From Monocercomonoides exilis PA203 (lineage: Eukaryota; Protista; Preaxostyla), in the NCBI GenBank assembly GCA_001643675.2, contig LSRY02000025.1, forward strand, positions 124,001-188,000: a stretch of DNA of 64,000 nt. Direction: 5' to 3'. Within the stretch, counting starts at the first letter, position 1. Every line of letters starts with the position of its first letter. The position numbers and the translations under genes were made by a program. The notes beneath the pieces were generated by a model. The model did not search any database, was not told the origin of the DNA, and saw only the letters and a list, made by a program, of their open reading frames with translations. Of the stretch, positions 1-41,355 are shown one piece after another.

Positions 1-245
1 TCTTCAAATTTAATAAATACTATTGCACTTGAAGAGCCGAAACACATTTCATTACATGGGGATTTCATCCATGAAGATAAAGATAATGATTCACTTGTTA
101 GGTATTGCAATGAATTTCAAGAGAGAGATAAATATCAACAGTTTTTCAACAAAATTACTTCAGAGTTTGGCTCAAAAATTTTGATGAAACTCCTTTGGAT
201 ATGTCTTATGTTAAATTCGTAATGAAATACATGTTGGAATATTAA
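1..245 (+). pseudogene. 3' end of putative penton/minor capsid protein (frameshifted)
   Basis: Frame 1 reads SSNLINTIALEEPKHISLHGDFIHEDKDNDSLVRYCNEFQERDKYQQF. After a frameshift near 140-150, frame 3 reads FRVWLKNFDETPLDMSYVKFVMKYMLEY* (TAA 243-245). The pattern resembles Polinton-type penton C-termini, and the viral context supports it. Confidence 0.45.
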
Positions 246-465
246 ATCAAAAATATATCTAAACTGTTCTCATTATTTATTCCTATATTAGTCATATTTT
301 TTCATTTATGTTTAATAAACACAAACTATTCACAAAAGAAATATCAAAAAAGAATGTCAGTGCACCGGGTCATTTAACTTTCTATAAAATCAGTGACCTA
401 ACGGCCAAATCGGCCAATACGATAATAAAAACATTAACGATTCTATCATCTCATATCTTTTATTA

Positions 466-489
466 GGGATGCTGGAATTCCAGTATCCC
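466..489. other. GC-rich hairpin next to left inverted-repeat arm
   Basis: GGGATGCTGG-AATT-CCAGTATCCC, a 10-bp stem with one G:T pair. Confidence 0.7.
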
Positions 490-496
490 CAAAAAA

Positions 497-720
497 TGAT
501 ATCAAAACAGTCGATTTCATAGTCAAAAATGATTCGGCACAAGTGACTAAGTTTTGCATGTGCCAACATGTGTCATGTTGTTTTTTCATATAAGAAGTAC
601 TGATTTCAGTCTCAATATTAATCAATCTTGCATCAAAAACGGTATAAGACCGGAGCAAGTGGAGCGGAGCAAGTTGTAAAATCGTTGTCTCTGAAAATAG
701 TGGCCATACGGACATATTGG
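497..720 (+). repeat. Left arm of 224-bp inverted repeat flanking primase-helicase; iteron-like sites
   Basis: Ungapped reverse-complement match to 3395-3618 (position x pairs with 4115-x), 29 mismatches by manual count. Confidence 0.95.
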
Positions 721-794
721 TCATTATTATAAGAAAACAAGAAAATAAGCTTAATTTCAAAAAAATAACTTTTTTTATTTCCACTAAAAGACAT

Positions 795-1895
795 ATGCAA
801 AACTTTTTGGACATAAACTCAAAACTGTTAAGAAAGAATCCTGCGTTAATGGTTCATGAAGATCCAGAAATTGAAGAGATGTTTGTGCAAGAAGAACAGA
901 AACGGAGAATAAGAAAAGAAATGATGAAAAAGAAGACAATCGGTGAAAGAATAAAAGGATATCAGAAACCATTATATAATTACAAGAAAGTGTCTCGAGA
1001 ATTCAAGAACAAAACTGCTGATGAAACAGTTAATGAAACAGGACAGAACACTGGACATTATATTGATATTAGAAAAATTGATAATCTAGCTGTTGTCGAT
1101 ATCGACATCAATAAAGCAGTTGACGAAGAAAGAAAAGAGAGAATCAGACAATCAATTCTTTTGAGATTGCCAGAAAATGTCGGATTAGTGCAGACAGGAA
1201 ATGGTGGATTGCACATATACTGTGACAGAGATGAATATCCATTAAAGACTGATTCACAAACAAAAGTCTTCAAGTGTTCCGACTTTGAGATAGATGTGTT
1301 TGCTTGTGTTAATGGAAATCGACGATTTCTTGTTCAAGCTGATACAGAAATAATAAAGTACACTGAAGAAGAGAGCAAGAATGCAACAAAATATATTCCT
1401 GAGAAATTGACAAAGAAAGCAGAAGAAGAGAGTGATTTAACTAGTCGATATGATGATTCTGCAATCAATCAATTCATCGAACAAGCTGAGACCAGAATAC
1501 GTGAAAGAGTCAAAGGAGATTCTAAAGTGATAAAAAAATATATTGACTTGAATAACTACCTTGACAAATCGAATCTTTCATCACTGGAAGACATTCTCAA
1601 CATATTTGGTATTGATATTCGATATGATTCATCAAATGACGATACAAACAAACATCTAACAACTGATGGAATCAATTTAATGTCGAAAGAGTTTGCTGAA
1701 GTACTTGTCTGTGGATTCACAAATGTTTCAATACATAATTATTGTCATTTCAGTATTGATAAAGAATTATCGTTGTTCCCATTATTTTGTGCCGTTAACA
1801 GTCTCATTAATATTGAATCAGTACAAGATGAAGACATCGATGCATACTATCAAGAGATAAAAACAATAATTAATTTACAGCAAATGCTGATATGA
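795..1895 (+). pseudogene. Bifunctional primase-polymerase (Prim-Pol, AEP superfamily); N-terminal half of a disrupted primase-helicase
   Basis: Motifs LAVVDID and VQTGNGGLHIY. Likely start ATG 795, inside ORF 717..1895. Reading continues through a frameshift at ~1877 (LTANADMNWDRT), TGA at 1910-1912 and a second frameshift at ~2031-2050 into the helicase ORF. Confidence 0.8.
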
Positions 1896-2111
1896 ATTGG
1901 GATCGAACATGAGAGAAATGTTCGAACAAGAAATCAACTCCTTATGCTTCACAAAAGATCGTCAAAATCTGGTGTCCAGAATTTTATCAAAACACTGTTG
2001 ATCCTGAGATTAAGAAAATGAAACTGATGAAAACTCAAATTATTAAAAGAAGTTATTGAATTTGAGAGGTGCACAGAAACATATAACTATCTCATTAGGA
2101 ATGTTACGAAG

Positions 2112-3383
2112 ATGTCAATACCAGATATTAAACAACATCTATTACGAACATTTGCGAAACTTGTCAAAGGAACTGACGTTATTGCGCGAATGGAAACCAA
2201 TATTTATTTCGTAAGAGATGCTGAATGGTTTGAGAATCAATTGAAACGTTTTATCATTCCATACGGTGTATCAACTATCACATTAAAGCAGTTATTCGTC
2301 GAGCAATTCAAAAACTTCACTGTATATGATGAGGTTGCTCCTGTCTCAGATTTGCCAAACATTTTCAACACATTCAGAATGAGAGATCCAACAGTATATC
2401 TGAATAATGAAGTCAAAACGATGATTGATTTTCTGAAAACTACATATGCTGATGAAGTTGCTTTCTATTTCAATCTTGGACGAGATCAATGGAGATTTAG
2501 AAACAATTATAAGCGAACAAAAATATCATTGGGATGTTATGGTGAAAGGGGTGGAGAAGGAAAAGGTTTTCTTACTTCATTAAGGACAAAAGTGTACGGC
2601 AATGAATTCTCATCTGTTAATGTTAGATTCAGTCAATTGGGAAAAGAGCAAACAAAATCTCTTCTTGAAAATAAATTACAGATTCAATTCGACGAACTTC
2701 CACGCATAAAGGATGGAAAAGTTGTTGTTGAAGACTTCAAAATCCTTGATAATGACATGCTGTCAACAAGATCGATGGCTAGAGATGATGAAAACATAAC
2801 TCTCTATTTCGATTGTGATTTCTCAACTAATAATTCATCATTTGCTGGGATATATAGTGATGAAGCAGTGCAAAGACGTTTGTATCCCATCGAAAGAATA
2901 CTTTCGACAAGAGAAGATGCGGTGGAGATGTGGAAACAATTGTGGAGTTGGATTAATAATGAAGATTTCATCTTCTCTTATGTCAAATACATAAGAGAAT
3001 CAGAAGATATTGAAAAGAATACAACAATCAAACCATATTCCAGATTCACAATGCTAGTTTTCTTTAACAGAATACATCAATCATATGAATACTCTTTCGA
3101 TATATGGTTAGAAGAATTCACTGAAGAACAATATAATAAAAATCTTTCCTATGAAAGAAAAGCAGATGGTATCAAGGGATTTAATGCAATTGATTTATAC
3201 AAGAACTACACGCAATATTGTTCACTAAACAAACTTCCATCAACAATGAACAAAATTGGAACATTTAATGAAAGACTCAAAAGAATTTTCGATTATGACA
3301 TTAATACAATAATGTGTACAGATGGAGTCAAACGAAGATTAATATATATTATCATAAAAGAAGATGAAAACATTAATCAATAA
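2112..3383 (+). CDS. SF3 / D5-like helicase with C-terminal winged-helix-like region (C-terminal half of primase-helicase)
   Basis: Walker A-like YGERGGEGKGF, Walker B IQFDE, motif C-like FSTNN, arginine finger AVQRRL. C-terminal DLYKNYTQYCSLN...F..RL resembles the D5 C-terminal domain. Confidence 0.8.
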   Translation: MSIPDIKQHLLRTFAKLVKGTDVIARMETNIYFVRDAEWFENQLKRFIIPYGVSTITLKQLFVEQFKNFTVYDEVAPVSDLPNIFNTFRMRDPTVYLNNEVKTMIDFLKTTYADEVAFYFNLGRDQWRFRNNYKRTKISLGCYGERGGEGKGFLTSLRTKVYGNEFSSVNVRFSQLGKEQTKSLLENKLQIQFDELPRIKDGKVVVEDFKILDNDMLSTRSMARDDENITLYFDCDFSTNNSSFAGIYSDEAVQRRLYPIERILSTREDAVEMWKQLWSWINNEDFIFSYVKYIRESEDIEKNTTIKPYSRFTMLVFFNRIHQSYEYSFDIWLEEFTEEQYNKNLSYERKADGIKGFNAIDLYKNYTQYCSLNKLPSTMNKIGTFNERLKRIFDYDINTIMCTDGVKRRLIYIIIKEDENINQ

Positions 3384-3394
3384 AACATCAGTGT

Positions 3395-3618
3395 CCAATA
3401 TGTCCGTATGTCCGCTATTTTTAGAGACAACGATTTTACAACTTGCTCCGCTCCACTTGCTCCGGTCTTATACAGTTTTTGATGCAAGATTGATCAATAT
3501 TGAGACTGAAATCAGTACTTCTTATATACAAAATCGACATGGAGCAAGCTGGAGCAAGATAGAGGAAGTCACTTGCTCCGTATCATTTTTGACTATGAAA
3601 TCGGTTGTTTTGATGTCA
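3395..3618 (-). repeat. Right arm of 224-bp inverted repeat; five GGAGCAAG sites
   Basis: ACTTGCTCCG at 3441, 3455 and 3571; GGAGCAAG at 3541 and 3551. Starts 11 bp after the helicase stop. Confidence 0.95.
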
Positions 3619-3715
3619 AAAAATGATGTCAATAGAATTCATTTAATGTGAATTATTGATACAAATAAAAATTATCGTTAATTTTATTTTTTCGAATTTT
3701 TTATCTTCTATAAAA

Positions 3716-4504
3716 ATGACAGTTACAACCGAGTGTATAATTTATAATAACGAAGAATTTATTAAAGGAACATACAACTCTTTCGAAATCTTGATCAGAC
3801 TGAAAGATAAATATGTAAATGCATCGAAGTTAGTAAAGGATATAAACAAACGAGAAGGTCGTACAAAACAGGTTAAAACGTTCTTTAAATCTCATATGTG
3901 TAAAGATCTATTGGATGAATTTAACAAGCAGAAAATTATTCAAAACAGCTCTTCAGATTCGTCGGGTAAAAAATTACCCGACGCAAGATATGATCTACAC
4001 AAGTCGTATTCTAATGATTTTAGAGGAACTTATGTTCATCCACGTTTAATAAACGCAATTGCGATATGGGCATCTCCAAGATATTTAATTATAATCTCTG
4101 AAATAATGGACGCAATTAATGAACGCACACAAGCAACAGGAGAGTCGTTTGATACAGTTACAAAAAGTATTATTGAAGAACAACGTAAAATAATAGAAGA
4201 ACTCAAACAGACAGTGACTGTTCAAAAAGAATACATATCCAACACATCAGTTCCTGACACCAATTGTGTTAAAAAGCTGTCGATAGTGAAAATATCTGAT
4301 GAACAATTTAGGTTATCAGCTGATACTTCAAGATCATTAGAGTATATATATCAATTTGAATTTCCAGCAAGCATGAATATCAGACAAGTGATAACTCAAA
4401 AATTAAATATGAAACTTCCTTATTCATTTGAAGAATCTGAAATTGAACAAGTATTAACAGTAATACGTTCTCTGAGTCCTAAAAGAGAAATAACAGCGTC
4501 ATAA
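3716..4504 (+). CDS. KilA-N domain protein with coiled coil
   Basis: YVNASKLVK...RGTYVHPRLINAIAIWASP KilA-N signature. Likely start MTVTTE within ORF 3656..4504. Confidence 0.85.
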   Translation: MTVTTECIIYNNEEFIKGTYNSFEILIRLKDKYVNASKLVKDINKREGRTKQVKTFFKSHMCKDLLDEFNKQKIIQNSSSDSSGKKLPDARYDLHKSYSNDFRGTYVHPRLINAIAIWASPRYLIIISEIMDAINERTQATGESFDTVTKSIIEEQRKIIEELKQTVTVQKEYISNTSVPDTNCVKKLSIVKISDEQFRLSADTSRSLEYIYQFEFPASMNIRQVITQKLNMKLPYSFEESEIEQVLTVIRSLSPKREITAS

Positions 4505-4566
4505 ATAATATTGATGACTCAAATTCGATATATCGAAATTGTTTTATAATAAAAATATATATTCAT

Positions 4567-5448
4567 TTATTTTTCTTTCGTGTCATTCAAGAATGTGTGA
4601 ACAAGAGAGACATGATAACCTAACAGTCTGTTGTAAATGTGATTATATTTTATTTGAAGATCCAATCCACCAACTAATATTCGAGAGATATCTTTAATGA
4701 ACTTCACTTTTCCTGAACGCGACACTGCTTGTTCTTCAATAATGATTTCAACATCGTTGACTCCTGACAATAATGCAATCAATATTAATAATTCATCAAC
4801 AGGAAGAATAATCATTTTGCTGGGTTCAATGCAACTCTTGAGTACTTTTTTCGGAGAATTGATCACATTAATGAGTAACTCGATATATTTATCTTTTAAT
4901 CTGTTTTCATCATCAGGATTAATAGTTATTGATTCTCGAAATGAGAACTGCGAACTGTTTCAGGTACTTTGTGATGAACACAATGGATAAGGATGTGTTG
5001 ATAAAGAGGGCGCTGATGGTTCAAATGGAACGGAAGGATGAGCAGTGAAATTATCGAAAGATTCTGTTTGTGAAGGATGTGCTTCGGGGACAAAGTCCCC
5101 TCGAGGATCAGAGATCCGTTCAGGAATTGATTGTTCTCGCTCTTGCTGACTGCTTCTTCTAGAAGCTGCCTCCTTTGTTGAATCTGTGTTTCCAGCTGCC
5201 ACATTTACGTTAATAGTATTAGACATCGATGGAGTTGAAGTATGTGTTGATTTGGTTAAATTTGCTGTTACAGAAATTGGAATAGGCATACTATTTTCAT
5301 TGGAATAAAAAAGATTTCTTTCATTAATGTTTTCTTCATTATTACTCTCAGTGTTTTGATTAGTGGTTTGAGTGTCTGAATCTGTCAATTCCACCTTCAA
5401 TTGGTTAATGTATCTTTTTGGAGGGACTTTCACAAGTGTTTTTAACAT
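4567..5448 (-). pseudogene. Maverick-associated hypothetical protein split by one in-frame TGA
   Basis: ORFs 4960..5448 and 4567..4866 are in the same frame. Reading across TGA 4960-4962 gives ...SQST*NSSQFSFRESITINPDDENRLKDKYIELLINVINSPKK... Confidence 0.6.
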
Positions 5449-5502
5449 TATCTTTATAAACAGTTAAAACGATTAATTTTAGTTTTTTTAATATCATTGA
5501 AA

Positions 5503-6060
5503 ATGCAAACATCAGATATTTATCAGAGACAGCTCAGACAGACAGGCACAAGAAATTTAGTGTTTGATTCAGCTTCAGAGATGCAAACTTGGATCGATGT
5601 GAACAAAGGAAATCTCGTGAAAGGACAATTTATACTTATTAAAGGAAATAACGTTCCTGATTACTGGTGGGATGGAACAGCGTTAAAGAAAATTGAGTGT
5701 GACATAAGTGAAGTCAGTGTGGGTGGACTTAACGAGTACTATAAAGCAGTTCAGATTGATAATATCGTTGAAATCTGCGAGAAGATTGAGAATAAAGGAC
5801 AAGCGAATGGATATGTTCCTCTTGACAATAATGGAAAAATTGCATAATCATATTTTACAATATCAGAAGACATGATAGATTTAACTGGAATTGAGTTGGA
5901 AGGATATGAAAAAACAACATTTAAAGGAAAAGCAAATGGATATGCAGGATTGGATGAAAGGGGAAAGTTATCAGTTGATGTTCTTCCTGATGAATTATCA
6001 GAAAAAGCAGGAACAAGTTATCCGTTAATGGATGGTTCTGTTAATGTTGGAACATCAGTG
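5503..6060 (+). pseudogene. Tail-fibre-like virion protein, one in-frame TAA, truncated
   Basis: ORFs 5497..5847 and 5872..6156 share a frame across TAA 5845-5847. Two KG.ANGY..LD..GK repeats, PDYWWDGT and PLMDGSVNVGTS resemble phage fibre repeats. Similarity ends at ~6060, where a host repeat starts. Confidence 0.6.
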
Positions 6061-6850
6061 ATCGTGACTTCCCCATTAGTGACGATCTCTCAAAACAGAA
6101 GAGAAGGAAGTGAGAAAATGTTTTCTTTTGAATCAAAGAACACGTGCTTTGATTAATAATACTATCAACCACCAAAAGAAATATATCTCGTTTATCTCAC
6201 CGACACCAGGCATACGAGGGATATAGGGCAGAAAAGGGATGAAAGTGGATTATTTGTGGCTGGGGGTAGGAGTTGAGTATATTTTTGAACGTAAATATTT
6301 CGAGAGGTACTTTTGAATGAAAGAAATTCTGAGACAAAGGGATGCGGAAAAGCAAGCGGTGATTAATAGAAGATAATGTGGAAAATATATAGAGAAGTGA
6401 TTGGAGATGGAAAAGAAGCATTTATTGGTGATGGTGAAAATGGATTTTGAAAAGAAAGAAAAGAGGGTAAAAGCGGGAAAGAAGATGAATATTTTGAAAT
6501 GTTCAGATGAAAGATAGATATTTTTTGAGAATAGAAAAAAAGGAGAGAAGATTTTTTGAAGATAGAAATGAAAAAGAAAGGAAATTGAGAGTTATTAACA
6601 TTTTTTGTTATTGAAGAGAAAGGAGAGGAAATTTAAAAAAGAAGACAAATGTCTTTGAAGAAATGCAGCTTAATTGATTAATTACAGAATATTTGCCACA
6701 ATAATTGTAATTTGGGATTATTGCCTTCTTGTGGAGTCATCTTGCCTTATACGATCTTGCATTCATCAACACCATCATTTAAAACTTATCAACTTCTTCA
6801 CAAAATTCATTGGATTATAAATGGATTTCTCTGTTGTTTCAATCATTCAC
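6061..6850 (+). repeat. Degenerate multicopy repeat/pseudogene (copy 1; inverted homolog at ~11330-12180)
   Basis: For example, TCTCACCGACACCAGGCATACGAGGGATA matches revcomp TCTCATCAACACCAGGCACAGGAGGGATA near 12020-12047. Collinear over ~800 bp with many stops. Confidence 0.7.
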
Positions 6851-6921
6851 ATTCTTAACCTTCTTCTAAGATGCCTCCTCTCATTAGACGGGGGATCATC
6901 CTGTTGACCTTCATGCGCAAA

Positions 6922-7650
6922 TGGGTGATTTTTTTTGAAATCATAAAAAAAGATCAAAAAATGAAAAAGAAATATAATTGTGGTTCATTTTGATCATTGA
7001 ACAAAATTTTTATTAATTAAGTGTTTGGTTTTTTTTTTTATCATGATATTGGTTTGTTTCGTTCATATATATTCAAAAAAAAAAGGTAAGTGGGAACAAA
7101 ACGTACTGTTCAAAATGTTTTTAAAAACATGAATACTTGTTATCAAAATAAGTAATAAGTCCATGTGGGATATTTTTACTGGTAAATTTCGTCTAATTCG
7201 AAAAATTACGTTGGTGACCCATTTTTGAAATTCTTAATCAACAAAACACATGATTTTTTATCATTTTTGATAGACAAAACCCTAATCAGTTATTTAGGTT
7301 TATATTTTAATTTTTATTATACCCTAATTCACTTGTTGTGAAGGCATTGAAACCAATGGCCTCTTTTAAACCTAATTAGAAATTATGAGAAATAATATTA
7401 TTAGGGTTTGATCACAGATTTTTTGATGAAAAAGGCGATTATTTATCACTTGAATTTTGAGTCGAAAATGAATATTACAATTTTATTGATTGCTTTGTAT
7501 TCATTTAATCTCGCTTTTTTTTGGAAATAAAACTTTCTTTGTGTTATTTTTTGAATAGTACGTTTTGTTCCCATTCACCAAAAAAAAGAAAGAAAAAAGA
7601 AAAGACCTTTTTATCTTAAGAGTATAAAACAAATTATTGATCATGTTTGA
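6922..7650 (+). repeat. AT-rich ~220-bp dispersed repeat unit interrupted by a MITE (inverted homologs at 15200-15420 and 15185-15200/13000-13033)
   Basis: TGGGTGATTTTTTTTGAAATCATAAAAAAAGATCAAAAA matches revcomp of 15380-15420. Similarity resumes after the MITE (GATCATGTTTGAAAAAA). Confidence 0.6.
7085..7579. mobile_element. MITE with 31-bp TIRs (Mutator-like GG ends), inserted in poly-A
   Basis: GGTAAGTGGGAACAAAACGTACTGTTCAAAA vs revcomp of the right end GGTGAATGGGAACAAAACGTACTATTCAAAA (3 mismatches). A-runs on both flanks are compatible with an 8-9-bp TSD. No ORF. Confidence 0.8.
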
Positions 7651-7989
7651 AAAAAAAAACCAAAAATGATTAAAGTTTATCCAACAAATTCATCAGAAAG
7701 ATATAATAAAAGTTCTAATCCTGTAAAACAGAGGCCATAAAAGAAAAAATATTGAAAGATCTGGGAAATATTGCAAAATCTTCGAAAATTTAAATATTCT
7801 GTGAAAATAAATGAGTTTTCTTTTTCTTCATTTGAAATGAAGTCACCAAGTTTTCAAAACAGCCATATTGCTCAACGGCTTCATCAAACGTTAAACGAAA
7901 TTAAAGATTATCAAATTACATTAAAAACAATATCAAACTTTATCATAGCATCTCTTTCTCTTTTCCAGATCCATAGATCAAACAACTTT

Positions 7990-10900
7990 CTTCTATATCC
8001 TTAGCTCTTCTTCCTTCCCTTTCCACTCTTCCTCATCCAAATCTTCTTTCGAATATGACTTTGATATTGTCAGATACTCCTTTTTGCACTTTTTCATAAT
8101 TCTTATCACTGCAATGCTCGATAACTCCAGCAGCTCCTGCAAATCTCCTCTTTGAAAACGTTTTTCTTTTCACAAAGTTTAGCCTGTTCTGAGTGAACGA
8201 GAAAGTAGGTGAATGAGAAAGACTCAGAAGAGATATGTGTTTTGTGTTCGAGTCTCGTCTTGCTTCTGAGGAAGAGCCATTATTCTCCTCATGAGAAGCA
8301 TCATTCAAAAGAATAATTCTATTGCAGGTAACGAAAGAACAAAAGCATTCAGCAATTGAAATGTTGGGTTGTTAATATTACTGGATTGATTCTTTGCAAA
8401 TATGGTGTATATAATATGTTCATTTCATAGAATAATTGTTTTGCGAATTGTAAAATGAGAAATGCGAGAGTGTGCACAAAGCGATTAGGCTTTAAAAGAA
8501 GGTGCAGGACATAAGGTGCATAAAATTGCATGAGCTGTTTTATCGGAGTATTGGTGCTCTTGATGGCCAAAGATGAAGGAAGAAGTGGGAAGGATGTTGT
8601 GAAAGAAGAAGAGAAAGGAATGATTGGAGAGAGCATGGGAGTTGGAATGGTGATTATTGGACCCAGAATTGAGAGGACATTGTCAGAGAAGAGCAAAATA
8701 AAAAAAGCAATGAAGAAAGTGTTTGGTAAAGGAGGAAGAGTAAATTCGGTTAATTGCTTGAATAAAGAAGAATATCAGCTTTTATCAGATATTTTTCTGG
8801 ATGCTGAGTAAATTTTGTCAGAATGCGTTTGAAAAGAGCGAGAATACTGCGAATATTGGCATACAGAGCGTTTTGCATATGATTTCACAAAAAACCCATC
8901 TCCAATTCAAAGTTGACGAAAAGGGAGATCTTTTCAACGGCTGAAGAAGTTAAGACCGCTGATTTATACAAAGTCCTTGGCTCTTCCACCACAATTCCTC
9001 TGTCTTTCAAGAATTCTTCTCATTTCTTCCATATCCATTCTATTTTCTTCCTCTTTTCCTTTAGAATCAAAACCATGTTTCTTTGCGTCTTCTTAACAAG
9101 CGCTAGCTCAGCCTCTGCTCAATGTTTCGCTTCCTTTCCATTTGCTTCATCTTCTTGTAAATAAAGAATTCGTTGTTTTTCCCAGCTTTCATAAAGCTTC
9201 TGTATCTTCCTCCTCTTCATACACTGCCATAACATCACCACAAACAGGCAAATAATCTCTCATCAAAAACTCGGATTCATTCCACTTTTCTGCATCTTTA
9301 CAAGCTCGTCCACTCGCCTAACTTCTATTAACTCCCCCGCTAACTATCTTCCTCTTCTTCTTAAAAAAATACTCACTTCTTTTCTTGCATCATCCACTTT
9401 TCTATTTTTTCTTTTGTTTTCGATCAATCTTTCAGTCTTTGGGTTAATTGTGTTTCTCCTAGCAAATTCTGTTTCAATGAGTTCAAATTTAACAAATGCG
9501 GCTTCCTCTCCCCTTCTTGAATATCCTTCCTCTTCTTTCTCATTTTTATCAAACTCGTCTTATTCTCCTTTCACAATCTGTAAGCTCTTCCAAAGTTCTT
9601 TCTCTTGCAGCTCAGGTGCCGAAATCAACGTTGAATTTGACACAGCCCTCATTCTTTTTTCGTAAATCCAATTTCTTCCCCCTTTTCATCATCTTCTTCC
9701 TCTTTCTCTTGCTCATCTTTTTCTTTTGTTTTAGCTTCCACTTCATTTGACTCTCTCTCCCTCTACCATTGCACTCATTTCGCCATATGGCTATTTTATC
9801 ATTTGATTTACAAGCGACTCATTTCGATGTTCAAAACTGTTCACTTCTCTTCTTTTAAATCTTACCAATTCTCTCTCTTCCTTCGGCTCTCATTATCAGC
9901 AACAATTCAACAGTGGCACGCCTTGTTCTTCCCACTCTTGTGGAGTTTGACATGTACTGAATACTTTATCATTTCACTTCACTTTCAACTGTTCTGGCCC
10001 ATATTCATTCTCAAAGCAGTTTGGGCAGCACTTCTCTACTCCTCATGATTTGTCGACAAGTTCTGTTCGATTTGTTGTAACATTGGCACAGACACTCAGA
10101 GAGAATTCAGGTTATGATATAAGTTGCGGTTTTGGAGAAGAAGAAGAAGAGCTTGCAGAAGGTGAAAAAGATGGAGAAGAATAAAATGAAAAGAATGAAA
10201 GAGAAGGTTCAAAATGTTGAGGAATTGAATTTGCCCTCTTTCAAATACAATTTTGAAACCAGAAAACTGCAATGAGATTAAAAATGGGGATTGGCGACTA
10301 AGATATGGCTGCTTTTCTGCGTTCCCTTGACAGTGTTGCACCGTGTCTGTTTTGTGCTGTCTTTTGTAAAAGCGAGTGAGCTGCATGTGTTCTTCAGGCT
10401 GTGAGCATCACGAATGATTGCAAGATCTGTGCTGCAAAGCTTTGATGATGAGGCAATCTATGGAGTCAGCTGCGAAGGTGAGTGCAGGATAGAATGGAGC
10501 CGAGACATAGTGCTTTGATTTCCTTGTGTGTGAGGACCAGCTCAACATGAACACCATTTTATCTTCTTCTTTTTTTTGAGCTCCTTCGTTGTATTCACCA
10601 ATTCTTCATCTTCCTCATCTTTCTCTTCTCCTTACCCTTTCCTCTTTTTCTATTGCTGCCTTTGTATGTCTTGTATTGAAAGCGTTAATTTGAGATGTGC
10701 AAAACTCACCATTCTCATTCGTCCTCCTCTTTGTCTTTGGATCTTCATGCTGTCCACCTTTCCTCTGCTCTGCACTCAATTTGCTTCTGAAATCCTCCTT
10801 CTTTGCCTTTTCCATTTGAACTTGCACTCCTTTCTCTTTACTTCTAATCGGTGTCATGAAGTGAGTGGATTATTGCGATGAGCTGGCAGCCCCTTCCCCT

Positions 10901-11330
10901 TCACACTCTCATTTCTCTTCTCATTTCCGTTCACCTGATACAGGAGAGCTTGTGAACAAAGAAGAACTAGCTCCTGAAGCATAGTTAGATGTACCGATGA
11001 AGAAGAGGAAAGCAGCTCAAATGATCATCCTTTTGAACCGCACAAGGATTTGATTGCAATGATGTTGCTGTTGTGAGAAAGCAAACTGAATGACAAAATT
11101 TAGGAGCTTGCAACCAATCTGCCAAATGAACAGCTTATATGCATCAAAATGTCTATGGTTTGATCCTTCACGAAGTCAGAAGAAATGTCTAATAAGAAAC
11201 AATTGAAGAAGAAACGAAGTCGACAACAACGAGATGAATAAGGTTTTGTTGATGGGAAAGGAGAAGACTTTTTAGAAGTTTGAAATTTGAAGAAGAAGAT
11301 ATTGGAAAGGAGGGAGAAAATGAGTGAGAA
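7990..11330. pseudogene. Mosaic of degraded fragments of lineage-specific multicopy protein families
   Basis: Coding-like composition but only short stop-riddled frames on both strands. 10615-10857 (EFCTSQINAFNTR) is homologous to ~31211-31420 (EFCTLQIDAFDTR). Confidence 0.5.
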
Positions 11331-12180
11331 TGCGGAGATGAGATGATTGAGAAATATGAAATTTGTCGAATGATATTTCTGAAGAAGATTACTTGACTTC
11401 ATATGATGTTATCGAATGAATGCAATGACGTATAAAACAAGTTAACTTCACAAGAAAACAATAATCGAAATTGCAAAATTTCTGGTAGATGTTCAGTTAT
11501 CAGTCAATGAAGTCGGATTCCCTCAAAGTCATTTGTTCTCTTTCTGTGACTTTCTCTCCTTTCGCTTCAATAATGAAAAATGAAGATATCACTCAATTTC
11601 CACTCCTTTCCATTCCCCTCTTCCATTCAGCTCATGAACTTCTCAGAAAATATCAATCCCTTCCTTTTCTTCATCTTTCCCTGTCTATTCCAAAATATCT
11701 TCTCCTCTCGAAAATAAAAATACCTCTCTTCCAATCAAACACTTCAGAATATTCTTCTTCTTTCCTGCTTTTGACCTATTTTCTTTCTCTTCAAAATCCA
11801 TTTCACCAATCAACAATAATCACCTTCTTCATCATTCCCAACAACTTCTCTACATATTTACTGTATTATCTTCTCCAAATCAAGATCCACTCTTCTCCAT
11901 CCCTTTGTCTCCAAATTTCAATCAATCAAAAACCCCTCTCGAATCTAAACCCCTTTAAATAAACTCATCTTCTACCCCCTATTACAAAAAATAGACTTCC
12001 ATCTTCCCTCTGCACCGTATCCCTCCTGTGCCTGGTGTTGATGAGATTAACATCAAATACTGCTTTTGATGGTAGAGACAATTTTTAATAAGATCGATCA
12101 CGGCTGAAAAGAAAAAACCCCTCTGGACATCCACCACGATGTGTACAGGCTGAAAAGACACTCCAGTGAGTTACACGATA
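11330..12180 (-). repeat. Degenerate multicopy repeat/pseudogene (copy 2)
   Basis: Inverted homology to 6061-6850. Confidence 0.7.
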
Positions 12181-13033
12181 TATTTTGTGGAGAAGCATTC
12201 AATGCTACAATTTGACCATTCTGAGGCTGAAATGAAGAGATTGATTTATTTTGAATGATGATGGATATGGAAATGAGGTTGCTTGGCAAAAAGCAGTCGA
12301 AGGGCAGTTTGGCATTATATATTTTTCTATATATGAACATTTATCTGTTGAATGTTTTTGTTTCATTTTCAGGGTAGCCAGAGGAAATGAATGAAAATAA
12401 ATGAAAGGGGACATCTCGTAATGCAGGATAACGATGGAGTTTGGAGAAAGAATTTATATGGAAAGTGTGCTTGATGAAGGAATTTAGAATGAAATAGGAG
12501 ATGATATTCTTTGAAGAAATACAGAGCGCCTTGAATTGAGAAAGATGGAATTGAGGAGAAAGCAAGAATATTTAATTTTCAGAAGGAAGGGAAAACGATG
12601 CATTTGGTGGAAAAATAACAGCTGGAAAGGATTAATGTGAATTCGTTGTTAAAACCGTTGAAATTTATTAGTCAAAAACAAATGTTTGTAGATCTTCTTT
12701 ATCAATTTTGCAATTTCTTTGCAATAACATCATATAACAAATATTCACGAAAGATATTGATTTATTGTGTGTAATTAATTATTATTATCATGTTTTTGAA
12801 CAAGTTAACTTAGGTTTTGTTCTGTTTATTGATGTTCCGTTATTTTTTTAGACCAAATAAATAATTTTTTCTAAATCAAAAATAAAAACAATTTATTTCT
12901 GAGAAAAATCACATAACATATTATTATAACTTAATATAAAGCAATATTTTTTCTTGAATGACACTTTCAATCTTCTTTTTTGGGCAACACTTAATGAAAA
13001 ATATTTTTGATCAAACGTCGGAATTTTTTATGA

Positions 13034-15183
13034 CACAGTCTGTCCCAAATAAATGTTGATCTGTCCTTTTTTAATGTTGAGCATCCCGCAATAAATAAAA
13101 ATTAAATTTCCCACATTCGCCTTTCGTCATCATAAACATTTTCACAACATGGAAAATATTCAATTATTGGATGCCAGAACAGTTGAAAAGAAAAAGAAAA
13201 TAATAGAATCAGTTCCAACAATTTCAGAATTCAGAGTTAGTGCAGTTTTATTACCTGTTGTTCATCCTTTGGAAGAACGAATTCATCAAACCATAAAAAT
13301 GAGAGCATCAATGAGAGCAGAGGAAGAAAGAAGAAAGAAAATAGAAGATCTGAGAAATGTTGAAATTCATGAGAATCAAAAAATGAAAAATCCTTATACC
13401 AATGCAACTGATGCAAAAAAAAGGAAATTATCTAATCTTTTTCAAATCCATGGTCAGGAGAAGAGCGAAACATGGTACGCGAATGAGTGCACATATACAA
13501 CAATTGCAACAGCTAGGTACTTATCGAAATTAAAGGCGGGAATAGACATTACACTTCCATTACATCAAAAAGGGAGAAAGAAAAAGGTCGAAAACGAACA
13601 ATATCAATCAATTGTTCGGGAAAAAATGAAGCAGAATCCTTTGAATACAGTGAGGAAAATTGCTTCTGAATTATCAAATCATGGAAGCCCGATTGGGAAA
13701 TCAACAATATACCGTATTCTTACAGAAAAAAATAAAGATACCCAAAAATATCCTATTTTTTCCTTCAAAAGGATAACAAAGAGAGAATCCGCAGCTAATT
13801 CAGAAGAAAATAAAATTCTCCGTATAAAATTCATCGAAAAACTCAACGAATATCAAATGGATGGTGCAATGATATTTTATATAGATGAAACATCCTGGAA
13901 TGTGGAATGCGTCAGAAAATACGGATGGTCCCCAGTTGGAGAGAAGGTTCTAATTCCTCCTCCACCAGTTCATCAGTCACTTACTGCCATCACATCCATC
14001 TCTCAATCAGGAATGGGATATTCCGAAGTTATTAGAGGATCAATAAGCCATGAAATCTTTGAGGCATACATTAAAAGGTTTTTGTTATCAATAAAAGTCC
14101 ATGGATCATCGGTTATTGTGATGGACAACGCTTCAATATATCATCTTAACACAGACGCAATAATAATGGAAGCCGGTCATCATGTACTATACAATGCCGC
14201 ATATTCTCCTATGCTGAATCCAATAGAAAACGTTTTTGGTTATTGGAAAAAAAGAGCTGAAGAAAGTTATTTCAAATGGAAAGGAGAAAATCATTTTATT
14301 TCTGTGCTTGTTGAGACCTTCAAAGATATTACAGAAAGAGAAGTTCGAAGAACCATTGCTAATGTTGAGAATGAAATATGGCCAATGGTTTTGGAAAAGA
14401 AAAACCTTTAACCTAAACGTTACACTCATTTATTCAAACTTCATTTATGGACGAAAGAAAGATTATTATTGCATTTGTATTTATTTTTTTTTAATCTCAC
14501 ATCATTTTGTTTTCATTTCTTTTATTTCAATCAACGATCTTTATTAATATCAAAGGAAATTGGCTTGTTTGCTCTTTATAATTATATTTTTTAACAAAAA
14601 AGAGTGAATAATTCTCAAACATTTACATGTCATAATGTCATAAAAGGCTATCTATCAAAAAGAATAAGAATTGTGAACAGTTAACTCAAAAGAGTATTAT
14701 TGACAGTTTTGAAAGTTGTTTCAAAAACAAAGATTCAAATAAGCATTTCGTTTTTAAATGAATGGCACAGTTTTTCTTTTTTCATGGAAATTCCATCCGC
14801 TTGATTCAATATTTGAGAAAAAAATGAAAAATAAGTATTTCTGAATTAACATATTCTTTTATTAAAGTTATCTTTCCTATGAATCAAAAAATAACATTTA
14901 AAAAAGTTAGTTGGTTATTGACACACAATAAAACTTAAAAAACAACAAAAGTGATAAAGCAAAATAAATAATTTATTACAATCAAACATCCCTTGATATA
15001 TTCAAAGAAAAAATACATAAAAACTCAATAAATCTTGCTTTTATACTCGAAACAGTGTTTAACCCCTTGCCAATAAAATGTTTATTATGACGAAAGGCGA
15101 ATGTGGGAAATTTAATTTTTATTTATTGCGGGCTGCTCAACATTAAAAAAGGACAGATCAACATTTATTTGGGACAGACTGTG
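13034..15183 (+). mobile_element. IS630/Tc1/mariner DNA transposon, 2150 bp, 109-bp TIRs
   Basis: TIRs 13034-13142 and 15075-15183 (CACAGTCTGTCCCAAATAAATG...), 2 mismatches seen. Right flank TA, left flank GA. Confidence 0.95.
13149..14411 (+). CDS. IS630/Tc1-family DDE transposase (DD33E)
   Basis: HTH (TVRKIASEL...IGKSTIYRIL), FYIDETSW, VMDNASIYH, YSPMLNPIE. 33 residues between the second D and E. Uninterrupted 420-aa ORF. Confidence 0.95.
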   Translation: MENIQLLDARTVEKKKKIIESVPTISEFRVSAVLLPVVHPLEERIHQTIKMRASMRAEEERRKKIEDLRNVEIHENQKMKNPYTNATDAKKRKLSNLFQIHGQEKSETWYANECTYTTIATARYLSKLKAGIDITLPLHQKGRKKKVENEQYQSIVREKMKQNPLNTVRKIASELSNHGSPIGKSTIYRILTEKNKDTQKYPIFSFKRITKRESAANSEENKILRIKFIEKLNEYQMDGAMIFYIDETSWNVECVRKYGWSPVGEKVLIPPPPVHQSLTAITSISQSGMGYSEVIRGSISHEIFEAYIKRFLLSIKVHGSSVIVMDNASIYHLNTDAIIMEAGHHVLYNAAYSPMLNPIENVFGYWKKRAEESYFKWKGENHFISVLVETFKDITEREVRRTIANVENEIWPMVLEKKNL

Positions 15184-16093
15184 TAATAAAAAATCACCCA
15201 CATTGTTTTTTAAAACTTGATCCTAAAAATCATTTTTCATCAAAAACATAAAAAAATGTATGTTTTTATCTATAAATAAATAAAACAAATAAATATAACA
15301 GAAATAAAAGCTAAATACTCGCAAAAAATCATTTATATTCTTTGATCAGTGAATACCACTATAGATTTTATTTTTTTCAATTTTTGATCTTTTTTTTATG
15401 ATGTCAAAAAAAATCACACATATTGTTTTCAAGTTATTGTATTATTTGAATTGCATTCGTTTCTTTTTCTTGTTTATTTGTGCCGTATTTGTTTCCTCCT
15501 CAAATGAGACGTTATGTTCATCAAACATAATATCTGAAAAATGAAAAAAAGCTGAAAGATAACAACCTTCACGAAAAAGCCATTTCTGTATTTTTGAAAA
15601 AAAGAAATTCAATTTAAATGTGATAAAAAACAAACTGAAATAGATTACTAACTTCTCGGAGAAAAATAAAAAATTATTAACACTATAACTTGGAGAAGAG
15701 CTCAAAAAGAATTGCTTTTTCGAATTTATAACGATTTTTGAAATATGCAAATAAAAGTCTGATATTAAATGAAAAAGAAGTTAGTAAGTTAAAATGGCTG
15801 AAGTACAATTGAACAATAATTAAAAAGAATACAACAAAAAGGTAATATTGAACATGCAAATGCAATTCTCCGATAAATAAGGCAATGTCTGTTTTTAAAA
15901 TAAATAAAATTTTAACATTTTTTTTAAAAAAAATTGATCTCACAAAAATTAGTTGCTGAAAATAGTGAAAAATAATGAAATGTTACATTTACTCTGACAA
16001 TTTCATATGACACATCTTTTAAAAAATAAATAAATACAAAAAATCCATTTTTAATATAATTAATGAAAAATGAAATAATCACCAATATGCCAA

Positions 16094-36365: not shown

Positions 36366-36663
36366 TACAGATGTCGCATAAAATACCGGACATCGCACAA
36401 AATACCGGACAAGATCGATATCTCAATGACAGCAAGAGGAACAATTCTTATAATTTTCCTCAATATACATCTCATTAATACAAACTCATTTGATATACAA
36501 ATCTTTCAAAATAGCTCCATTTGTGTTCACAGAAAATTATTTAAAAAATCTCGGAGGAACTCAAAATCCTATTTCTCCGAGAATTAAATAATAATTTTCT
36601 GTGAGCACAAATGAAGCTGTTTTGAAAGTTTTGAATATTAAATGAGCTAGTATTATTCAGATG
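36366..36663. repeat. Tc1/mariner-like end (TA-CAG, two 19-bp direct repeats) followed by a ~195-bp palindrome
   Basis: TCGCA(T/C)AAAATACCGGACA at 36374-36392 and 36393-36411. Imperfect inverted arms 36468-36556 / 36575-36663. No partner end found. Confidence 0.6.
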
Positions 36664-36944
36664 AATTTTGAGAAATCTTTTCTGATTTTCTCTTTTTTTT
36701 GGATTTTATTTGAAATTCAATAAAATTTTGGAAGGTTCATTTATAAATGGTGATGGCTATATCTTCCATAGGCGATTTTCTTTAAATTTGTATATTTCAA
36801 TAAAATTTTTTCGTTTGAGAAATTTCTTTGAATTATGATAAATATAACATTTAAGTTTCAATTCGATTCAAAGATAAAAATTTGATGAGGATAAATTTAC
36901 TCATTGTTTTCAAAAACAATTATAATTCATTTTTCATTTTAATG

Positions 36945-39900
36945 TAGTCCATTGCGACGCGACTTAAAAAAATTCATCAAGTCTGTCAGTTAAAAATATT
37001 GTCGAACAACAGGTTCGATTCCTGAGAAGAACACTTTTTTATTCAATTCAATTTTTTTTCAAACAAAAGTTTTGAACAGATTTATTTCGATGAACTTTCT
37101 TAAAATACTCAATGAAACAATTTAAATGTGAATTATAATGGCATCGATCATTTAAAATATGATCGATTGTATCAGACATCGACACGCGTTTTGAACTATA
37201 TGTTATCGTATGGCAAAGTTCAGAACCTTTCTTGAAATCAATTGGTGAATATTTTCCAATCCTTTTCTGCATTTTGGATGTTTCTGCATTTGAGTTAACA
37301 TAATTGGATATTTTTCGTCTGAACAATGAAGTGTTTAATAGTTTGTGTTTTTATTATGTTGAAATTGTATAGAAGATTCGTTATTCAATCGGTATTTTTC
37401 ATTTTTCATTCAATGTGATATCAATTTGTGTAACTTTATGAAGATTATAATATTATTTCGCCAGATGTTATTAGATGGATATTGCGCTAATTGTTGAAAC
37501 ACATTAGAACATTTAAGAAAAATTGCCTTATTTGCATCAAGCCATTCTTTGTGTATTTGAAAACTGTCTTTAATTTGAACAAAAAAATTGATGGAAGCTT
37601 TTTAAGAAGTGTTGAATTGCCAGATAACAGTGATTGTCAAATATTTTCTAGTATTTTCATTTGTGATTGATTTTTTTTTTTCAAACAATTCAATTGTTTA
37701 TTTATTGCTTTTATAGAAAAGCTGAAAAGTATTTTTTTTCTGAAATGATAATCTATTCATAATAATAAAGAAAGACTATAAAGCTCATCAAGATCCTTTT
37801 AATGATTTTTCTCTTCTTTAGTGAAAATTCTGAAATGCCAAACATTTAATAACATTTTATCATTTTCGTCGAAAAGGATAATTCATTTTCATCAAAACAA
37901 ATTATGACATTTAAAAATATAGTTGATTGAAAGTCATTCAAATATATGCGTTTCTTTTATCACTTCACATATCACAAAGAATCAAAAACAAGTATTTTAT
38001 TAACTATTTGTTTATTGGCGATATGAACTCATTGTTTCAAAGGAAAAAAATATTTATCAGATAAGAATGCAAAAATTGAAAAAAAAATAAACGAACTTTA
38101 ATGATCAAACAAGGAGTAGTGTATTCAATGTTTCTTCACTTAAAGAATGACGCCGATCTCCAACAATTCTTCTCATTTTTGAAAAAACCCTCTCACAAGG
38201 CGCTTCGCTGCAAGGACTGGCAATTAAAGACATGCAAATGTTTGCGTAAATGGTGTGAATTTTGCTTTGTGAACCAATGATTGAGTAATAAGTGAAAGGA
38301 TTAACCAAAATAGTTTCCTTTTCAGTTGGATATAGTGACTCATAAAATATCTTCTTGTATTCATCAATATGAATTCTCTTTGCTTTGGAAAATATATTCT
38401 CTATGAAAGAATTGAACGAAGATATTATTCTCATACTCCAATTAGATGTTATTGCAGATTCAATATTCGAAGATATTTCCTTAAGGTCATCTTCAGTTGT
38501 CATTTTGTTGCGAGTAACTTGTTCATTTGATCCAATTTCGTAAACATCCAACTCTATTTCCTCATTTGAACTTGATGTGGGTTCTTCGATATCTTCAATA
38601 TCCATTCTGGATGAACAATTTTCTTCATTTTCTGTATGCATATCTGAACTTGTCTTATCAGTGTATCTTGTGGAGTGACACATTAAATTCTCACTTGAAG
38701 TTGGAAAACATTTAAATTCGTCATTTTCTGCTTCCAATTCTGCATCGGTCAATCCAAGCAAATCTTCGAAATCTTCACAAATTGAAAAATCATTCGCTTC
38801 ATCTTTGTTTGAAATATCTTTTGATGCTAATTCAAATATTCGCAATAATTTATCCAATAGCTCATCATTTTTGTTTGTGATTGAAACTGAGCCTTCTGAA
38901 AAATGACTGGAAGTTCCTTCCGTTATGGTGGTTGCAAAGCCGAGTCCTTTTTTGTGTGATAAATGGATTCCTTCTGAGAAACTTATTGCTGAGTGAAAAG
39001 ACGTGATTGACAATGGGGTTTCAATGCCTTTGGGATCGGAAACAAATGAATTAAACAATGAAGTTGATGTTTGATTTTCATCAATTGAAGTTGGATCAGA
39101 GAAATGCGCTTGTGGAAATTGCGATTCTTTACATGCAGATGAATTGTCGGTTGATGAAGATGCTTGTTCCTCTTCATTATATTTCAAAGGATCAAAAACT
39201 GTTGATGTTGTAAATAAATTGGAATATCTAAAAAATTGAGAACTGTCTTTGGACACATCATCTGAAGGTTCAGTGGTTGTTTGATTCGACTTTGAACTTG
39301 AGACAATTTGATTTTGCTCTGCCTCAATATTGAATTTGAACAAAGCTATTTCTAAATTAAATATCGATGCAAATTCACCTTTTCTGAAATTGTTCAAACC
39401 ATTCGGAGTTAACACATACGCTAATGCTATCATGTCGCCTCTAGGTCCTGACAAAAACGAATTGAATAATTCAATCAAAAATTCACAAACACAAATAGAC
39501 CATTGAAGTTCTTTAAAACTTGGTTGATTGAGAATGACAAAATACCTTCCCAAAGCTTTCAGTAGTTCTGGAAATGCTCCTCCAAGTTTTGAAGTTTCAT
39601 TCTCAAAAAGAAATGCAATTGCTGCAATGGAAGAAGCAAAATTTCTGTTCTAATAATATCTGAGACTGTGTTTGAATCAAGAAGTTCAGCTTGTAATATC
39701 ATCTTTTTGTTGACTCTGATGAAACGACAAATTTGATATAAACAAAGCCATCTTGTTGCAACGTACGTCGGACATTTTGTTTTCAAAATCGAATAAATTC
39801 TGGGATTGTGAGCGCTTTTTGAAAACTCAACAATTGTTTCCTTCAATGTTTTCAGTGTTTGATTGTTGGAAAAAATTCGCACAATAATCAAATTAGTTAA

Positions 39901-41355
39901 ATGATTCATGCAGTATATAAAAAAAGGACCAAATGCGAATAAATGTTGAGGATCTTCATCTGAAAAAAGTCTGTTTCTTATTTGTTGCAAGGCTTTTCTT
40001 TGCGGAAGAAGTCCATCACTGCAAAAGCAGTGCACCTCCGATTTGCATATTGTTATTTCGCGGATTACATTCAAGGCCAAGTTTTCATAATCTTTTGATG
40101 AGTAACAAGCGGGATATAATTTCCAAAAAATTGGTTTCCCAGAAATTGTCAGTGGGACAACAGAAACAGCTGTATATTTCTTTCCGGATATTGCTCCTCC
40201 GTCAATCATGACCCCAACTGGTACATTTTCAATGTGTGAATATCTCTCTGATTCTATTCTTTTCCTTTCTATTGAAAGCATGTTAGACACTTTTCTTTCA
40301 GTAATCAGTGGAAATATTGTTCTTGCAGGAAGTGTGGGATTTTGCTGAGCAATTTGAATTAATAACTGCAAAAAGTTATTCAATTCTGATGAAGATGCTG
40401 AACGAAATGATACGTTGCAATGACCAACAAACTGTACAAATGAAGTTGACAAATCTGAAAATTGAATAAACTTTTCTGATGATTGAATTTGTGTTGATGA
40501 TAGTTTGCCTTTATCAGTATTCTTTTTCTGCATTAAGTGATCCAAACTTTGATTCGAAGTGATCGTGCATTTGTGTGAATCCAAAGAAACATATCCCCTT
40601 CTTCCAGAAAATCCACAATTGAATCCTTTCCGACTGTTTGGACAAAGAAGATATCTGTGACCATCTTTTTTGATACTTCCATCTTGCTGAATAGGAATAA
40701 AAGATATCCACAAATTATCTTTATATATTTCTAATGATATTTTTGTTATGAACTTTCCATATTCTTTCGGGTGCCTGTAAACTATTGGTGGAAAATAAAA
40801 ATTCAAAAACAGAAAAACATTAAAACCATTTCCTTTCTCAGTTGTTTTGACATATTCCAAAGCAACGAATCCACAACCAATCTTTTGTAATTCGTAACAT
40901 TTTTTGTAAAATGCTTTTTTCTTTAAATATAAAGAATATTTTTGTATAATAATTAAATGCTATATAAACTACATACAATTAAAAGATCGTTCAGGGATAA
41001 TTGAAGTTCAGGTGGTAAACTGTTTAATAGCTCAGGATCCATTTAAATAATAAATTTCTTGATGCCCAGACTCTCCACTGGAAAAGATTGTCATCAAATT
41101 TCCATGACTGACTGATCTTGTCAACAAACCATAACTTTGATAATAATCATTAAAATTTTGACAACATCGAAAAAGCAAATAAAAAAATGCAGATCCAATC
41201 ATATAAATATAAACATTTTATATTCTTTATTTATTAATTTATTTTCCATATTTTTTTGCTTTTTCATAAAATGAAATTTGAGTGACAAAAGTGTTTTATA
41301 AAGTCGGTCATTTTAACTTTTTGTTTCAAAAAATGTCACAAGTCGCAGAGGATTA
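36945..41355 (-). mobile_element. hAT DNA transposon, 4411 bp, with 8-bp TSD
   Basis: Exact TSD TTTTAATG at 36937-36944 and 41356-41363. Imperfect TIRs TAGTCCATTGCGAC / TAATCCTCTGCGAC (11/14). Contains a hAT transposase. Confidence 0.93.
38105..41042 (-). pseudogene. hAT transposase with 5' intron(s) and a single frameshift
   Basis: Catalytic and structural motifs VMIDGG, FCSDG, CMNH (CxxH), ATRW and C-terminal SPCSEAPCERVFSKMRRIVGDRRHSL. Exon 1 41042-40977 (MDPELLNSLPPELQLSLNDLLI) splices in frame across GT..AG intron 40976-40921. The frameshift at the T5 run 39605-39609 joins ORFs 39559..40860 and 38105..39553. Confidence 0.88.

Follow-up and report, generated by a model that had tools for sequence, protein, structure and literature searches.

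The window, a stretch of 64,000 nucleotides of Monocercomonoides exilis PA203, begins within a virus-like remnant that runs from the left edge to approximately position 6058, where another mobile element splits a fibre-like gene (PHROG minor tail, E = 5e-4) and where contigs show loose ends (6054/6058). Inside this parent element, with genes of the latter on both sides, a primase-helicase gene is enclosed by two inverted arms, which are repeats separate from viral TIRs. The unit delimited by the arms is referred to as the cassette (Table 1). Related copies were examined as contigs from four runs (X1 to X4) of one sample. A penton gene at 1-222 and an assignment to the Mavericks, both proposed in an earlier sequence-only reading of this DNA, were not confirmed by Pfam and PHROG profiles, and neither pPolB, rve integrase, capsids nor TIRs were detected within 1-6058; the parent element extends past the left window edge, and an integrase of this virus, if there is one, would be encoded beyond the window. 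According to Pfam, transposase and recombinase families are absent from the frames of the cassette, with no DDE family in either frame, and no serine or tyrosine recombinase was identified in the eight frames scanned in 1-6153 (Pfam, PHROG). Likewise, a Pfam scan revealed no endonuclease gene beside the cassette.

Table 1. Features of the cassette and its flanks (window positions).
Feature	Position	Strand	Evidence
Hairpin in the left flank of the parent element, 7 bp outside the cassette, marking the target site	466-489		Near-perfect palindrome; z = -3.2; 1 of 200 shuffles equally stable
Left copy of direct repeat; its A tract 491-496 may be a 5-bp target duplication or the core of a recombination site	490-520	+	77% identity to 3617-3647
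Terminus of left arm, begins with TG, kept between arm types	497-530	+	3 mismatches in 34 to right arm (91% alike)
Type-B (GCAC) outer patch with sites 536 (+), 557 (-), and 567 (-)	531-587		Arm comparison; contigs
77-bp spacer separating divergent iteron pairs	575-651		Portion 588-650 kept between types; GC 29%
Two inner type-A sites of left arm (GGAGCAAG at 652 and 666)	652-673	+	Arm comparison
N-terminal gene part: Prim-Pol-type primase and helical linker	795-1895	+	PHROG 3022 DNA primase, E = 4e-4; weak match to Pfam Prim-Pol protein
Central piece of the gene in a different frame, interrupted by two in-frame stops (lesions)	1871-2059	+	Frame analysis; contig X4 record 27
C-terminal gene part: SF3 helicase (NrS-1/D5 type) and predicted winged helix (approximately residues 380-443)	2031-3383	+	Pfam PF19263, E = 1.9e-6
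Right arm, five of five sites type A, ends with CA	3395-3618	-	Arm comparison
Right copy of direct repeat: A tract 3619-3623, followed by 24 bp similar to the arm end	3617-3647	+	17 of 24 letters
KilA-N gene belonging to the parent element, beyond the cassette	3716-4504	+	Pfam PF04383, E = 5e-19

The arms (497-720 and 3395-3618) pair without gaps over 224 bp with 29 mismatches; a repeat finder widens the pair to 497-723/3392-3618 at 87% identity. Three mismatches are located in 497-530, 21 in 531-587, and five in 588-720, and none of 100,000 random placements reproduced such a clustering of 21 out of 29 mismatches inside 57 bp. The motif GGAGCAAG, referred to as type A, occurs in seven copies in the window compared to approximately 0.9 expected from base composition, and every copy is situated within the arms (652, 666, 3442, 3456, 3541, 3551, and 3572). 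The outer sites of the left arm read GGCACAAG (536, +), GGCACATG (557, -), and GACACATG (567, -), and an AG>CA change is common to all three; these GCAC sites are designated type B. The sequence-only reading was exact with regard to the arms, the motif sites, and the mismatch clusters, and the coordinated change at the three outer sites which it had emphasized is present as well. If the three sites are treated as independent, the probability of the common change is P = 0.0006, and it rises to P = 0.04 if the tandem pair is counted as one event; on the latter count, the evidence of the window for a coordinated motif change is weaker than it appears.

Each arm is composed, from the outside to the inside, of a terminus of 34-39 bp, one inward site, two tandem outward sites, the 77-bp spacer, and two inward sites. 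Two sites per arm are thus situated on each side of the spacer, the pairs pointing apart. With a GC content of 29-30% in comparison to 28-32% in the surroundings (AT 70-71% versus 68-72%), the spacer shows no AT enrichment. The right arm starts 11 bp past the stop codon of the gene and the left arm finishes 74 bp ahead of its start codon.

The gene itself, treated as intact before, is broken in the window into two long frames and a short middle frame (Table 1). The frame break near 1858 falls into an A run for which contigs of all four runs have one more A, and is likely a one-letter error of the window. In contrast, the two in-frame stops and the second frame change are reproduced by contig X4 record 27 (1795-2513, no other letters, one gap). 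In the primase half, the D-x-D and His positions are conserved in an alignment of relatives. Its nearest relatives are P0001 and proteins of Streblomastix strix, and all named relatives belong to this species (two of three matches in one search, 24 of 24 in another), for which endogenous viruses of a Metamonada group have been reported in the accessible part of PMC10120064.

For the helicase half, a model was obtained from a 27-sequence alignment (pLDDT 81.9); a single-sequence fold (pLDDT 35) was not used. This model was matched to the NrS-1 protein with Z 19.4 and rmsd 7.8 (359 aligned, residues 35-443), to SaPI5 PriRep with Z 17.0-17.3 and rmsd 7.4 (373 aligned, residues 19-450), and along its length also to ASFV and poxvirus D5-type helicases. 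Its last domain consists of one strand, two helices, and a terminal hairpin. The C-terminal 107 residues resemble Pox_D5 clusters (24 out of 30 matches, top scores 0.95, with the family on 18-50% of their members), and PF03288 was matched by two of 40 relatives. The protein is predicted to combine a primase, an SF3 helicase, and a C-terminal winged helix of the D5 type, and the winged helix had indeed been anticipated. A search for longer proteins with the helicase half yielded no relative. The two halves differ in their nearest relatives: among full-length proteins, BLASTP matched six to the N-terminal half only, five to the C-terminal half only, and four weakly to both, fitting the domain swapping that is treated in the accessible part of 10.64898/2026.10.13.758929.

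The cassette ends with TG...CA and is bordered by an A5 tract on either side. Both arms overlap a 31-bp direct repeat (490-520/3617-3647, 77% identity), and past the A tract, 17 of 24 letters in the right flank agree with the end of the arm itself. Insertions of the DDE type with a 5-bp duplication, as well as recombinase cores at targets that resemble the end of the element, are familiar patterns, and the end structure fits either of them, the latter with an end-mimicking target. Since A5 is of low complexity and also sits within the 31-bp direct repeat, it argues only weakly for a target duplication.

Contigs that start in the unique left flank and cross the GCAC patch (224-617/671) contain zero to one other letters in all four runs. 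Due to the occurrence of the patch in contigs of every run, an assembly error, for which the first description had suggested a check, does not account for it, and we regard the patch as genuine in this one sample. The comparison of the right arm comprised X1 and X2 only, and the findings apply to the contigs listed, among which several type-A arm variants occur. Contig X1 record 5 represents a second diverged type-B outer arm, in which 15 of the 21 patch changes are common and six are absent. It has differences of its own (six listed letter changes and two gaps) and is absent from the X2 listing. AG>CA is present at all three of its sites, namely at two clean type-B sites and at a third that was aligned through gaps. 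Eight of the 15 patch changes common to both type-B contigs are located in the motifs, which make up 42% of the patch.

In another X1 contig AG>CA occurs at both inner sites with the same 14-bp spacing (30 listed letters before 3462, compared by eye), for which a probability by chance of 0.0002-0.004 was obtained at 37-75% divergence. The 127 loose letters of this contig before 3462 are unlike the interior of the window cassette. A complete second arm type with five switched sites probably exists, judging from contig letters in which the all-GCAC inner arm comprises 30 letters of one contig in one of the two runs compared, the type-B contigs being unphased to each other or to a gene.

A site devoid of the cassette was observed in contig X2 record 16, where a homolog of the hairpin runs directly into the right flank (3615-3720). 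This homolog agrees in 15 of 20 letters and lies at equal distance to the A tract (by eye; letter differences are listed only beyond 30 letters from the junction). Furthermore, an X3 contig joins 307 to 3667, in agreement with a cassette-less site, the intervening sequence not being given. Presence or absence of the cassette among related viral copies is therefore represented by one X2 contig and one X3 joint of one sample. Taken together, the second type-B arm, the contig with inner GCAC sites, and the empty site indicate that type B is a lineage and that the cassette is inserted or deleted as one unit of 3127 bp. Because the empty site is made up of the left flank of the type-B terminus and the right flank of the type-A terminus, type A and type B cassettes appear to use the same target site. 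Elsewhere, the three loci recovered in searches for relatives, namely L001 and L122 (both with phage-type genes) and L123 (a lone primase), had no comparable arms. In a pattern scan of viral stretches (120 of approximately 190 recovered) none encodes a relative, and of 121 loci L001, which was found otherwise, is the only one that does.

Short iterons are recognized via a C-terminal winged helix by the Reps of SaPIs, whose origins are located directly after the gene, with at least two iterons in opposite directions on each side of an AT-rich centre (PMC9371898, accessible part). The cassette protein shares with SaPI5 PriRep (PDB 7OLA/7OM0; PMC9371898) the fusion of a primase, an SF3 helicase, and a C-terminal winged helix, the latter predicted here. 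Similarly, each arm contains at least two short sites per spacer side, opposed and next to the gene, and the existence of different cognate origins in different islands is a SaPI feature that parallels the two arm types. Unlike SaPIs, the cassette resides in a eukaryote, has 8-bp sites, and is bounded on both sides by a copy of the origin-like array, the two copies being inverted; its spacer does not exceed the background in AT content, and the unit lacks an integrase.

Given this SaPI-like layout, we infer cognate origins in the arms, the helicase of a sister cassette as the partner of type B, and one crossover as the source of the hybrid left arm. The reading we prefer, with a probability of roughly 0.6, is that 497-3618 is a mobile replication cassette with a single gene, residing in an endogenous Polinton-like virus, with arms that are predicted origins of its own primase-helicase and a left arm that is a recombinant of two types. 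The winged helix would bind the 8-bp sites, two per side of the 77-bp spacer, load the helicase, and prime synthesis in the manner of a SaPI Rep. A sister cassette with GCAC sites would carry a helicase of different specificity. One target with a likeness to their own end would be shared by both types, whose insertion would depend on an integrase or recombinase that acts in trans on the common terminal 34 bp. Termini that are constant while the sites switch fit such a mobilizing enzyme in trans combined with a private origin code. A single crossover in the conserved block 588-650 may then have joined a type-B flank and outer arm to a type-A inner arm, gene, and right arm.

Recombination between related cassettes is the best explanation of the left patch. 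Of the two origins initially considered for a second site type, exchange between cassettes is hence favoured, with a second arm type present in other copies, and an active inversion or conversion switch is disfavoured, given the broken gene and a motif set that inversion would leave unchanged. The copy in the window is a decaying relic without an active switch.

Octamer iterons are present in phage P4. Terminal inverted repeats and residence inside larger viral genomes are known for TG...CA-ended DDE transposons and for transpovirons. The cassette resembles these transposons and transpovirons in its terminal inverted repeats, its candidate 5-bp target duplication, and its location within a viral genome, but it lacks a transposase and its sole gene encodes a primase-helicase. 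The P4 alpha protein, whose winged helix is confirmed in PMC2777425, and ORF904 of pRN1 likewise unite primase, SF3 helicase, and winged helix in one chain (PMC2777425, accessible part). Differences are given by the DnaG-type primase of P4 alpha and by pRN1, for which no iterons were found in PMC2777425 (accessible part). In both structure and profile comparisons, the helicase half is matched best by the primase-polymerase-helicase of NrS-1 (PDB 6K9C), a phage protein; according to the accessible part of PMC9371898, recognition of an origin by the C-terminal domain of this protein has been left unaddressed.

In Polisuviricotina, repeats besides TIRs bracket AEP or PolA replicases according to Barth, Ha and Aylward (bioRxiv 10.64898/2026.10.13.758929, section 13), who found one element to consist of an AEP gene alone and proposed autonomous mobility. 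Repeat-flanked mobile D5-like helicases have been described for entomopoxviruses and their PLVs, with the inverted repeats proposed as origins (PMC11296320, section 9); the word iteron is absent from that publication. Both cases correspond to the cassette in that non-TIR repeats bracket an integrase-less replicase, independent mobility is proposed, and primase and helicase domains swap. The statement of the sequence-only reading that no internal module flanked by inverted repeats had been described is accordingly wrong in general terms. In their accessible parts, 10.64898/2026.10.13.758929 and PMC11296320 describe no site layout, two site types, hybrid arm, or empty allele, and the cassette further differs from these repeat-flanked replicases by the lack of an endonuclease gene beside it. 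In the accessible literature on virophage and Polinton primase-helicases, no description of two iteron types and an empty site was found for such a cassette.

The main rival to the origin reading assumes that the mobilizing enzyme reads the sites. An integrase, transposase, or tyrosine recombinase would bind them, the sites being of the subterminal or arm type; two transposon subfamilies would account for types A and B, with the gene as their cargo. Such an enzyme would agree with the TG...CA ends, the A5 on both sides, the end-like target, and the empty site, and also with the multiple sites per end, as Mu, Tn7, and lambda attP commonly have them. Inverted repeats of PLVs have, moreover, been proposed as recombinase substrate as well as origin (PMC11296320, accessible part). 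This is opposed by the lack of transposase and recombinase families among the cassette frames, by termini that remain 91% alike over 34 bp although the motifs switch, by the absence of the motif from the ends of the other transposons of the window (seven of seven copies are in the arms), and by the divergent two-plus-two layout, which is that of a known helicase origin. We therefore consider it rather unlikely that the mobilizing enzyme is the reader of the sites.

Ordinary divergence of the outer left arm, with the tandem pair acquiring the change in a single event and the third site acquiring it by coincidence, could account for the patch if only the value of P = 0.04 is considered. The gene is decaying, and eight out of 15 common type-B changes in motifs that span 42% of the patch are likewise in favour of it. 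Due to the sharp clustering of the mismatches, the second diverged contig with three switched sites, and the third contig with switched sites at both inner positions, this is improbable.

Long inverted arms with identical stretches are able to recombine, and two motif types occur in one genome, which could point to a programmed inversion or conversion that switches the orientation or specificity of the cassette. No recombinase family was identified in the eight frames of 1-6153, however, and the gene is broken. Furthermore, inversion through the conserved block would leave the motif set unchanged, because the type-B patch would stay on the left flank. No strand change was observed in the 14 contig joints listed, which says nothing on inversion because contigs break inside the arms; among the listed contigs, none reaches from a unique flank across an arm into the unique interior. 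A programmed switch is thus very improbable, and we assign the same low standing to a role in transcription, in which the KilA-N protein or a host transcription factor would read the sites and control transcription from either side of it. The KilA-N gene adjoins the cassette and the left arm is close to the start codon, but a promoter needs no 224-bp mirror copy after the stop codon, and one contig links the arm end to 4564, skipping the KilA-N gene (intervening sequence not given). Finally, a chimeric assembly of the left patch, suggested at most by the likely window error in the A run, is negligible in view of the nearly identical contigs from left flank to patch in all four runs; the junction between types A and B is bridged to 671 (X1 record 1, including the type-A site 652), since no listed contig links the patch to the unique gene start.

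With respect to the preferred cassette reading, mobile viral replicases bracketed by repeats are already proposed in the accessible literature, and the additions made here are the two site types in one genome, the hybrid arm, and the empty allele. For primase-helicase Polinton-like viruses, the start of replication and the swapping of replicases are addressed by proposals only (PMC11296320; 10.64898/2026.10.13.758929, accessible parts). Three items offered by the locus make specificity testable with one small domain and two oligonucleotides: a candidate binding site, the domain that may read it, and two naturally occurring site variants distinguished by two letters. The filled and empty alleles of one site offer a handle on how an integrase-less replicase moves. 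One may speculate, as a possibility that is more doubtful than the cassette reading itself, that an undescribed class of one-gene selfish replicons of eukaryotic DNA viruses is represented. These would possess two complete iteron origins, home to a fixed, end-like viral site, and form incompatible types via re-coding of iterons together with a swap of the helicase/winged-helix half, the hybrid arm being a snapshot of type displacement. If true, types would diversify by iteron re-coding like those of bacterial phage satellites.

Over the primase half, contigs are 87-92% alike (X1 record 3, X3 record 19), and X1 has one matching contig over 2311-2520. This patchy cover of the helicase half would fit sister copies with another helicase half, missing cover by itself proving nothing. 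Read depth, which is no measure of copy number here, was approximately 740-1030 over the arms in most bins of X2 versus 208-258 over the near-identical gene. A reading of TAA as glutamine, as in Streblomastix, was rejected because the standard code leaves host frames of 2855 and 5202 codons open; in addition, one of the two stops of the gene is TGA.

The KilA-N module (window 3619-4563) is, like the primase-helicase cassette, variable between copies. In a contig of sequencing run X1, position 3618 is joined to 4564, passing over the module, and in contigs of X2 and X4 of the same sample 3721 is joined to 4100 inside it, in both cases either directly or through intervening sequence. Furthermore, copies of this region occur on contigs with different upstream sequences ahead of 3667/3669. 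The section 3619-4563 is a modular-exchange hot spot.

Where other copies depart from the window over 1-6300, an unusually large share of the changes are A/T transversions (108 of 367 places in X1), with T>A as the top single class (63). In the reverse-strand gene region 4567-5448, contigs of other copies have short deletions (4938-4981 and 5077-5120). The two frames of this region likely represent one gene, for which family searches including Pfam and PHROG matched no family.

Further features of the window, with the basis of each assignment
Feature	Position	Strand	Basis
Two in-register frames, one stop between	4567-5448	-	open-frame reading
Element breaking fibre-like gene at 6058	about 6056-12100		depth, repeat finding
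Tc1/IS630-type transposon	13023-15194		inverted ends, DDE gene
Long fold-back; arms of 126 bp show 77% complementarity across a 12-bp gap	36434-36697		repeat finding
Two neighbouring frames, one with terminal hAT dimerisation domain	38105-40533	-	frames, domain match

The element interrupting the fibre-like gene shows higher depth and contains internal inverted repeats (6422-6525/11716-11819, 81%). In the Tc1/IS630-type transposon, the inverted ends measure 120 bp (98%) and the DDE gene is open over 420 codons.

A related primase that lacks a fused helicase is encoded at 2-1357 of the separate locus L123. This AT-rich 1.7-kb contig is assigned to a bacterial metagenome-assembled genome but is possibly a misbinned protist-virus fragment.
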